Source: an uncultured Clostridia bacterium (GTDB lineage Bacteria; Bacillota; Clostridia; TANB77; CAG-508). From it: 64,000 nucleotides of DNA. The stretch covers positions 5,305 through 69,304 of the forward strand of contig CALXCE010000002.1 in NCBI GenBank assembly GCA_944386725.1. Direction: 5' to 3'. Positions 15,541 through 15,626 of this stretch are shown one piece after another. The position numbers and the translations under genes are program-made. Each line of letters begins with the position of its first letter. The first letter of the stretch is position 1. A model generated the notes under the pieces. It worked only from the letters and a program-made list of their open reading frames with translations. It did not search any database and was not told where the DNA came from.

Positions 15541-15626
15541 AGGTGTTTTTGGGGACGGAGATAAAAAACACCTTATTTATTTTTTTACCAATAAGGTGTT
15601 TTTTATCTCCGTCCCCAAAAACACCT
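15541..15626. repeat. twin GC-cored hairpins / 33-35-bp near-perfect inverted repeat in the sleB-ypeB intercistronic gap
   Basis: Arm 1 (15541-15575) is aaggtgttttt-GGGGACGGAGAT-aaaaaacacctt. Arm 2 (15594-15626) is its reverse complement apart from one T. Each arm is itself a hairpin, and the two loops (GGGGACGGAGAT and ATCTCCGTCCCC) are complementary. Confidence 0.85.

Follow-up and report, generated by a model that had tools for sequence, protein, structure and literature searches.

The twin hairpins at positions 15541-15626 of the window (the whole 64-kb stretch of DNA that was analysed) are very probably a REPIN, formed by inverted copies of a REP-like hairpin that is dispersed in AT-rich, uncultured, spore-forming gut Clostridia, is linked to a RAYT, and sits at the sleB-ypeB junction as a passenger. 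By the working definition the element is a REPIN, with a matching putative RAYT encoded in the expected arrangement in related genomes of the clade, and a probably single-copy transposase is the most likely agent by which the hairpin family was spread. The kind of element is known; the lineage and the sequence family are new.

The initial annotation had described two reverse-complementary elements of 33-35 nt between sleB and ypeB, each able to fold into a hairpin. This structure was present where it had been placed, far beyond what chance would produce, with arms of 37 nt that are slightly longer than claimed. The arms (15541-15577 and 15590-15626) are complementary at 37/37 positions (100%) and are separated by a spacer of 12 nt. 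The earlier description of this region was right except for small numbers and for the strand, since both genes lie on the minus strand. The parts of the element and its immediate borders are the following.

15541..15626, either strand: the element in full, two hairpin units arranged as a REPIN-like inverted doublet, which reads identically on both strands with a G-rich box 5' and a C-rich box 3'
15590..15626, minus strand: the arm that is 5' in the sleB-ypeB mRNA, AGGTGTTTTT-GGGGACGGAGAT-AAAAAACACCTTATT, with the sense-strand G-box at 15616..15605
15578..15589, either strand: AT-rich 12-nt spacer from the inverted-repeat search, the loop of the long hairpin
15541..15577, minus strand: the arm that is 3' in the mRNA, AATAAGGTGTTTTTT-ATCTCCGTCCCC-AAAAACACCT, whose C-box is similar to the anti-Shine-Dalgarno sequence
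15627-15625, minus strand: stop codon TAG of the sleB-like gene, at the ancestral position, overlapped by the first 2 nt of the repeat
15538-15531, minus strand: ypeB Shine-Dalgarno sequence GAGGAGAG; the same sequence adjoins the stem remnant in L224

The sleB-like gene (Hydrolase_2, 158 aa; 16101..15625, minus strand) and ypeB (457 aa; 15524..14151, minus strand) are 100 nt apart. The element does begin at the sleB stop codon, as had been stated, whereas its other end lies 2 nt from the ypeB Shine-Dalgarno sequence and 16 nt from the ATG (15524-15522, minus strand), and not 17 nt before the ribosome binding site. We note that a 684-aa protein (P0001) is 74% identical across the whole of YpeB (457 aa) and may represent a fusion, or else read-through in the gene call, at a sleB-ypeB junction.

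Each arm contains an inverted repeat of its own (TAAGGTGTTTTT/AAAAACACCTTA; stems of 10-12 bp, loops of 13 nt), and the loops of the two arms read GGGGACGGAGAT at 15551-15562 (plus strand) and ATCTCCGTCCCC at 15605-15616. Folded as RNA, the sense (minus) strand of the long hairpin reached -64.7 kcal/mol (z = -12.5) and its plus strand -61.6 kcal/mol (z = -14.7), and no shuffle out of 200 matched this fold. The small hairpins folded alone reached only -10.2 kcal/mol (arm 15590-15626) and -11.3 kcal/mol (arm 15541-15577). Of the two forms that had been suggested, kissing loops or a 35-bp duplex, the equilibrium form is therefore the long duplex, of 37 bp, and not a pair of kissing hairpins. Both loops of the doublet carry the same private variant, GGAGAT in place of GGAGGA, and a second private variant, GGTGT, is common to all four stem segments. 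The family model R1 gave 53 bits for each arm, both arms being part of its training set. No Rfam 15 family matched the element at gathering thresholds, and a permissive Rfam search of it returned generic long-hairpin (miRNA-precursor) matches only, all far under threshold.

To place the element within a family, we scanned genomes with TTTTGGGGAYGGRGRNAAAA, taking one genome per species; all counts are lower bounds. The scan returned at least 119 stretches, and about 100 of those listed came from uncultured Clostridia or Clostridium sp. gut MAGs with 25-33% GC, recovered from chicken, rabbit, mouse, sheep and human hosts and often with several loci per genome. About 15 listed matches fell in unrelated higher-GC taxa and were without a hairpin. 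The initial annotation had taken the lack of any other copy as telling against its proposals; many copies are present in genomes of the related clade. The repeat unit, found in at least 52 AT-rich gut Clostridia MAGs (species-level genomes), consists of a stem of 6-15 bp with the core TG[AT]TTTT, then GGGGACGGAGGA as a conserved 12-13-nt loop, then AAAAA[AT]CA. Among the matches listed, 68 units stood singly and 47 inverted doublets were counted, whose boxes lay 14-106 nt apart, and one genome contained up to 9 unit copies (8 stretches).

Stems were uniform within a genome and unlike between genomes (CTTGTTTTT in 9/9 units, CATGATTTT in 6/6, GATGATTTT in 6/6 and GAAATTTT in 4/4; 52 assemblies). 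In 60 aligned units, chosen with the six innermost pairs required, which qualifies the covariation measured, 125 stem cells had changed on both sides as compared with 51.6 in shuffles, and none of 500 shuffles was as high. Pairing in the same alignment involved 87% of stem cells, against 50-63% when the 3' partners were slid by 1-3 columns, and the loop was invariant. GGGGACG, which had been put forward as a recognised motif, is borne out as the invariant core of this dispersed family, with 194 occurrences versus 6.4 expected in 866 kb of related loci, a count to be read with the caveat of ascertainment. Several subfamilies exist, and what they share is the GGGACG core only, not GGAGG or GGA. 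The exact 33-mer of the window arm had no second copy within the 64-kb window. BLAST searches of plasmids and phages with the repeat gave no matches; in viral contigs the consensus 20-mer had 0 matches and the 17-mer 7 chance matches, all without hairpins; and a literature search with the box sequence retrieved unrelated eukaryotic papers only.

The window contains three members of the family, all unlike one another. Besides the doublet these are the following.

39693..39729 (39693-39735 with T6), plus strand: second member, a single hairpin ACTGGTGCTTTT(TGTCCCCGTCCCC)AAAAGCACCAGT followed by T6; R1 score 44 bits (in the training set), fold -15.6 / -17.8 kcal/mol
2660..2700, minus strand: decayed member right after a stop codon, AAGATGTTTT(GTGGACAGGATC)AAAAATACC, orthologous to an intact copy in L054

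Divergent genes flank the hairpin at 39693-39735, and about 10 nt downstream of it comes a near-consensus TTGACA-17-TACAAT promoter-like site for a 1100-aa ORF; the hairpin looks terminator-like on the plus strand, yet no gene reads into it. The copy at 2660-2700, set beside that of L054, illustrates decay in the lineage of the window. A second repeat family, 43 nt in length (TTGGGGACGTTTCTTTTTGCACATTTTTGTG(A/C)AWTNAGGGACA), was seen, when each GGGAC of the window was inspected, at 16203-16245 (plus), 16281-16323 (minus) and 21187-21229 (plus). It comprises a hairpin GTGCAA..TTGCAC around a GGGGACG box and a palindrome TTGCACAAAAATGTGCAA, and it shares TTGGGGACG with the hairpin family. Two of its copies, inverted relative to each other, flank the divergent sleB / MGDG-synthase promoter region, where one supplies the -35 of TTGTGA-17-TATAAT; the third (21187-21229) is located between tadA and a 251-aa ORF. 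Outside the window, this family has a copy at the orthologous place in L005 and related copies in L069, L061 and L185.

At the ends of hairpin-family elements we also observed partial tandem duplications of the stem plus the first 3-7 nt of the box (L060, L080, L101, L103, L122, L126, L130, L067 and L234/236/238). Examples are TGATTTTGGG-TGATTTTGGGGACGG and CTGATTTTGGGGTCG-TGATTTTGGGGTCGGAGAC, sometimes mirrored on the opposite side as CCCCAAAATCAT-CCCCAAAATCATG. These duplications may be footprints of cleavage and rejoining near the box, or of slippage. At L051 (1104-1592), G-box and C-box hairpins in doublet polarity enclose about 440 nt of AT-rich non-coding DNA, a very long spacer.

The search for a transposase started from IS200, IS608 and E. 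coli RAYT queries; its sole finds, a Spirochaete match and an IS200 pseudogene (L052), were not linked to the repeats. The pseudogene (L052 7000-7560) is an IS200-family tnpA whose HUH region is deleted; it lies about 110 nt from a G-box hairpin, with no evident link. ORFs between element pairs in L031 and L045 were housekeeping or sporulation genes, with no transposase among them. In a Spirochaetales MAG, a box match (L037 1636-1655) was situated 70 nt upstream of a Pfam Y1_Tnp ORF whose homologues are annotated RayT, and a GGGAC[GA]GAG[GC]A box with polyA preceded RayT genes of other phyla at 3 of 4 loci inspected, which suggests that the box is of ancient standing in this RAYT clade and reaches far outside Clostridia. 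In L037, L226 and L227 (Spirochaetes and other environmental phyla) box and A-run lie 60-115 nt upstream of the Y1_Tnp genes, and in L227 a GGGACGGAGCA box, without A-run, is also found downstream of the RayT gene.

A profile built from those RayT proteins and run against all locus ORFs identified a 253-aa ORF in L062, a mouse-gut Clostridia MAG with G-box elements (E = 2.9e-29), together with the C-terminal part of its orthologue in L101; a profile search of the ORFs of the 64-kb window detected no RAYT there. With Pfam Y1_Tnp (cut-off 23) the L062 protein scored 50 bits; the NCBIfam model NF047646 for REP-associated tyrosine transposases gave it 72.9 bits, just under the cut-off of 80, and the IS200 model 18.5 bits. 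The catalytic motifs N-H-x-H (HUH) and Y-I-x-x-N-P-V were invariant in 28 aligned sequences. Against the PDB the profile had a single match, E. coli TnpA-REP (4ER8, E = 5.7e-10); phmmer with the clostridial RAYT had none there, so the profile was needed. The clostridial RAYTs also share a conserved C-terminal extension of about 100 aa (L062 4302-4700; alignment columns 200-290) that is absent from the Spirochaete RayTs and ends in IKYTDIMxxLDITKGTMERLKK, with a weak Cro/C1-type HTH match (HTH_26, under cut-off).

The RAYT gene of L062 is bordered by the repeat on both sides. Upstream, directly after the ABC-F stop, stands TTAATGATTTT(GGGGACGGAGGA)AAAAGTCATT, and downstream, just ahead of tex, stands AATGATTTTT(TCCTCCGTCCC)AAAAATCATGG, so that G-box is followed by C-box in the polarity of a doublet. 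The same arrangement, G-box upstream and C-box downstream, recurs in L233-238, with the downstream box only in L229, and the ABC-F / RAYT / tex synteny, seen in three lineages of the clade, is common to homologues at 66% and 61% identity and to every place returned. One homologue (P0276) is encoded on contig JAAWAM010000029.1, which belongs to a G-box genome, and is accompanied by a C-box hairpin on the downstream side only. Another (P0308) has co-varying boxes on both sides, GGGGTCGGAGAC upstream and GTCTCCGACCCC downstream; the RAYT-flanking boxes of its lineage (GGGGTCGGAGAC) are unlike the clade-wide dispersed consensus. With the same box flanking its gene, the RAYT-type transposase is the obvious candidate for the GGGGACG-binding factor that had been postulated. 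In the classification of Bertels et al. (2017), RAYT Group 1 occurs in Clostridia, and abundant flanking repeats are tied only to Groups 2 and 3. At the level of sequence, then, the related genomes show the family, its distribution, its turnover and the linkage between gene and repeat.

The copies also have a characteristic polarity and position. Among the matches listed, the order of boxes within doublets was G..C in 41 cases and C..G in 1, a dubious case; gene context was tandem for 68 units, convergent for 24 and divergent for 8; and 6 of 115 units lay inside ORFs. In tandem contexts the box was at most 25 nt from the upstream stop in 51/68 (median 12 nt) and at most 25 nt from the downstream start in 11/68 (median 67 nt). 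A published survey of REPs, in which Firmicutes and Clostridia are unmentioned, reports the same placement near upstream stops (PMC3733652). Single units had the G-box on the sense strand in 29 cases and antisense in 8 (p = 0.0008), a strand bias that could reflect a function at the RNA level rather than the mechanism of spread. In L109 (~3270-3300) and L064 (~5905-5935), the G-box GGAGGA and the ATG of the stem (ATCATG) are at ideal Shine-Dalgarno to start spacing for the downstream ORF, and in L107 (~4040-4060) the upstream ORF extends into the element and takes as its stop the TGA within the stem CATGA; these elements appear to have been co-opted by flanking genes.

We regard it as unlikely that the family represents a third REP architecture shaped by selection for interaction with the ribosome, in which the GGGGACG tag in the large loop is a near-perfect Shine-Dalgarno mimic and the partner loop an anti-Shine-Dalgarno mimic. 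If this were true, then ribosome selection, and not transposition alone, would explain the sense bias of single units, the proximity to stop codons and why doublets, whose boxes are paired, are tolerated before ribosome binding sites, and the sleB-ypeB doublet would measurably uncouple the translation or the stability of the two cistrons.

The structure had also been proposed to set the sleB:ypeB expression ratio through partial termination or mRNA processing. That the doublet is such a dedicated intercistronic regulator, an RNase III site, exonuclease barrier or partial terminator tuning the SleB:YpeB ratio, is decidedly unlikely in our estimate, even though a very stable hairpin fills the exact gap from stop to ribosome binding site, doublets occupy the same junction in the related species L009, L111 and L220, internal stem-loops set operon stoichiometry in other Clostridia (PMC9045158), and RNase III binds or cuts Correia repeats in Neisseria (PMC2649163). 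Against this reading stands the junction itself, which we compared in 75 relatives retrieved via SleB. Most of them lack the element and have a junction of 5-30 nt with the ribosome binding site as its sole content. SleB ends in FCK* in 69/75 relatives, so the window has retained the ancestral position of the stop codon. In several lineages this junction is occupied by GGGACG hairpins of other kinds: L144-L149 have AGGGATTGG[GGGACGG]GTCTTC..AATCCCT in one copy or in three, the loops being inverted from copy to copy; L185 has a pair of CCTTTGGGGACGTTTCCTTTTGG; and L162 has GCTCCATTGGGGACGTTAGCC... The 163-nt junction of L145, L146 and L147 holds three tandem hairpins of another subfamily, AGGGATT..GGGGGACGGGTCTTC..AATCCCT, whose loop orientation varies by strain (G,G,C vs G,C,C) with the stems unchanged.

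Relatives with YpeB 89-94% identical to that of the window also differ at this site. L009, L111 and L220 have a homologous doublet with GATGATTTT stems; L005 and L219 have a single hairpin with reversed A/T polarity; L222 and L223 have a doublet of the TTGCCACAG(GGGACGGACC) subfamily, with a spacer that is unlike between both strains. In L224 only TAG-GTGTTTT-AAAAATATC-TTAGAGGAGAG is left, which retains the outer halves of the stem and lacks the 66-nt interior, as though precisely the stretch from G-box to C-box were missing. Despite its private loop and stem variants, the window doublet appears positionally orthologous to the GATGATTTT doublets of its sister species. The bare junction of most relatives, and the different subfamilies or mere remnant in close ones, indicate that the element is an insertion with fast turnover. 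At other loci, a unit lies between the ddl stop and a genuine terminator in L009 and is missing there from the window and L005, and of two genomes compared at an orthologous site, one can have a doublet where the other has a single unit (L083/L119, L061/L084). Comparisons of filled with empty sites (window/L224, L040/L122, L107/L045) gave no consistent target-site duplication or clean insertion footprint.

Other observations weigh against a regulatory role in the same way. The same element is found between unrelated housekeeping genes and between convergent genes. A terminator scan of 14000-17000 returned 0 terminator-like sites, and the sense strand is without a U-run after either hairpin of the doublet, unlike an intrinsic terminator. 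Sense-strand mismatches between the boxes of imperfect doublets comprised 13 A-C and 7 G-U; given this lack of G-U bias, no selection at the RNA level is seen for the long hairpin. Neither control of the expression ratio nor partial termination is supported by these results.

Very improbable, in our view, is that a protein or the ribosome of the host binds the G-box hairpin as an RNA motif, either as a Shine-Dalgarno mimic (GGAGGAAA in a loop after stops) or as a CsrA-type GGA site, and that the hairpin marks a post-transcriptional regulon in which doublets are neutralised forms with the anti-Shine-Dalgarno-like C-box paired. Such a motif would be in keeping with a loop conserved over at least 52 species-level genomes while stems covary, with the 29:8 sense bias of single units, with copies that adjoin stop codons, and with the few loci that seem to supply a downstream Shine-Dalgarno sequence and ATG (L109, L064) or an upstream stop (L107). 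However, the other subfamilies share GGGACG only and not the GGAGG / GGA part, many copies lie between convergent genes or belong to doublets with their loops buried in the duplex, copies come and go quickly at orthologous sites, a transposase gene is flanked by the boxes, and the window copy itself no longer has the Shine-Dalgarno-like GGAGGA but reads GGAGAT. That the doublet is a purely local palindrome, produced on the spot when an ordinary hairpin was replicated by template switch or fold-back, without any mobility, is hardly credible: the 37/37 identity of the arms with private variants (GGTGTTTTT/GGAGAT) unseen elsewhere, the alternation of single unit and doublet at orthologous loci (L083/L119, L061/L084) and the partial tandem duplications at element ends of several loci would fit, but hundreds of dispersed copies, genome-specific masters, the fixed polarity of doublets and the association with a RAYT would be left unexplained. 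A local fold-back origin may be a route from single units to doublets. Readings as a CsrA site, a DNA-uptake sequence or an integron attC were dropped, as the core is GGGACG and not GGA, the boxes seldom lie outside intergenic hairpin loops, and the flanks are syntenic housekeeping genes.

Under the REPIN-RAYT explanation, the RAYT would recognise the folded single-stranded hairpin and its GGGGACG box, and would then cut and rejoin DNA, thereby copying or replacing elements in the way that TnpA-REP of E. coli acts on REPs. The genome from which the window derives presumably encodes such a RAYT, and the sleB-ypeB copy would be a passenger. The private variants of the window doublet require a lineage-specific master copy, gene conversion or an in-situ inverted duplication; simple insertion followed by drift is insufficient. 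Together with the missing interior of L224 and the duplications of 'stem + GGG(G)', the shared private variants suggest in-situ replacement or conversion with a cut near the box. Once transcribed, the element would form a 37-bp perfect duplex between the sleB stop and the ypeB ribosome binding site, and this duplex might be cleaved by RNase III, might block 3' exonucleases and so protect the sleB 3' end, or might damp the hand-over of ribosomes to ypeB. These possible effects on the mRNA follow from what is established about RNase III and about REPs near stop codons in E. coli. They would be by-products and not conserved operon control, and the comparison across relatives gave no sign that an mRNA effect is selected for and lent no support to a dedicated regulatory role.

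For sleB-ypeB biology, this means that the hairpin is not to be taken as a conserved regulator of the germination operon. To our knowledge, REPIN-RAYT systems have so far been convincingly documented in Gammaproteobacteria. The family described here would be a well-populated REPIN-RAYT system in spore-forming gut Clostridia, with at least 52 species-level genomes and several GGGACG-core subfamilies. Its unusual repeat architecture and the visible turnover at one locus make it useful for studying how 'domesticated' replicators persist. On the practical side, repeats of this sort interrupt MAG assemblies, look like regulatory hairpins, and could act as strain markers.

Among known systems, intercistronic stem-loops and internal terminators that set stoichiometry resemble the window element in that a stable hairpin separates two cistrons of the same operon (PMC9045158), whereas here there is no U-tract, the junction is not conserved, and the hairpin is a member of a dispersed family. 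Correia repeat-enclosed elements and MITEs (RUP, BOX, ERIC) are likewise small and non-coding (~80-150 bp), have terminal inverted repeats, insert between genes, and are co-transcribed into hairpins that RNase III can bind or cut (PMC2649163). Correia elements differ in having a TA target duplication and plain 26-bp inverted repeats, where our element has no duplication and arms that are themselves hairpins, and the associated enzyme is here a Y1 HUH and not a DDE type, which sets the element apart from DDE MITEs. The CGTC-tagged REPs (Di Nocera, De Gregorio and Rocco 2013, PMC3733652), a superfamily that is mainly alphaproteobacterial and apparently without a dedicated transposase, come closer, in that the core on the other strand, CGTCCC(C), contains CGTC and dimers are nearly all of one polarity. 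Theirs, however, is an unpaired terminal tag with an 8-9 bp stem, a 4-5 nt loop and a CCA tail; measured against GTAG- or CGTC-tagged REPs, the present units have neither terminal tag nor CCA tail and carry GGGGACG / CGTCCCC inside a 12-13 nt loop, and so fall outside that superfamily. The nearest counterpart is the REPIN-RAYT system, as known from the REPINs of Pseudomonas fluorescens and from E. coli REP/BIME with TnpA-REP (4ER8). The differences lie in the host, here Clostridia, in the AT-rich stems with a conserved G-rich 12-nt loop in place of the GC-rich stems with 5' GTAG of known REPs, and in the C-terminal extension of about 100 aa on the putative clostridial transposase. What the two have in common are palindromic single units and inverted doublets that fold into one long hairpin (PMC3116915, PMC5581495, PMC3733652), a copy number that ranges from several to many in a genome, 'master' sequences particular to each genome, extragenic copies close to the 3' ends of upstream genes, and a Y1/HUH transposase flanked by units at a fixed chromosomal locus, seen here in related genomes.
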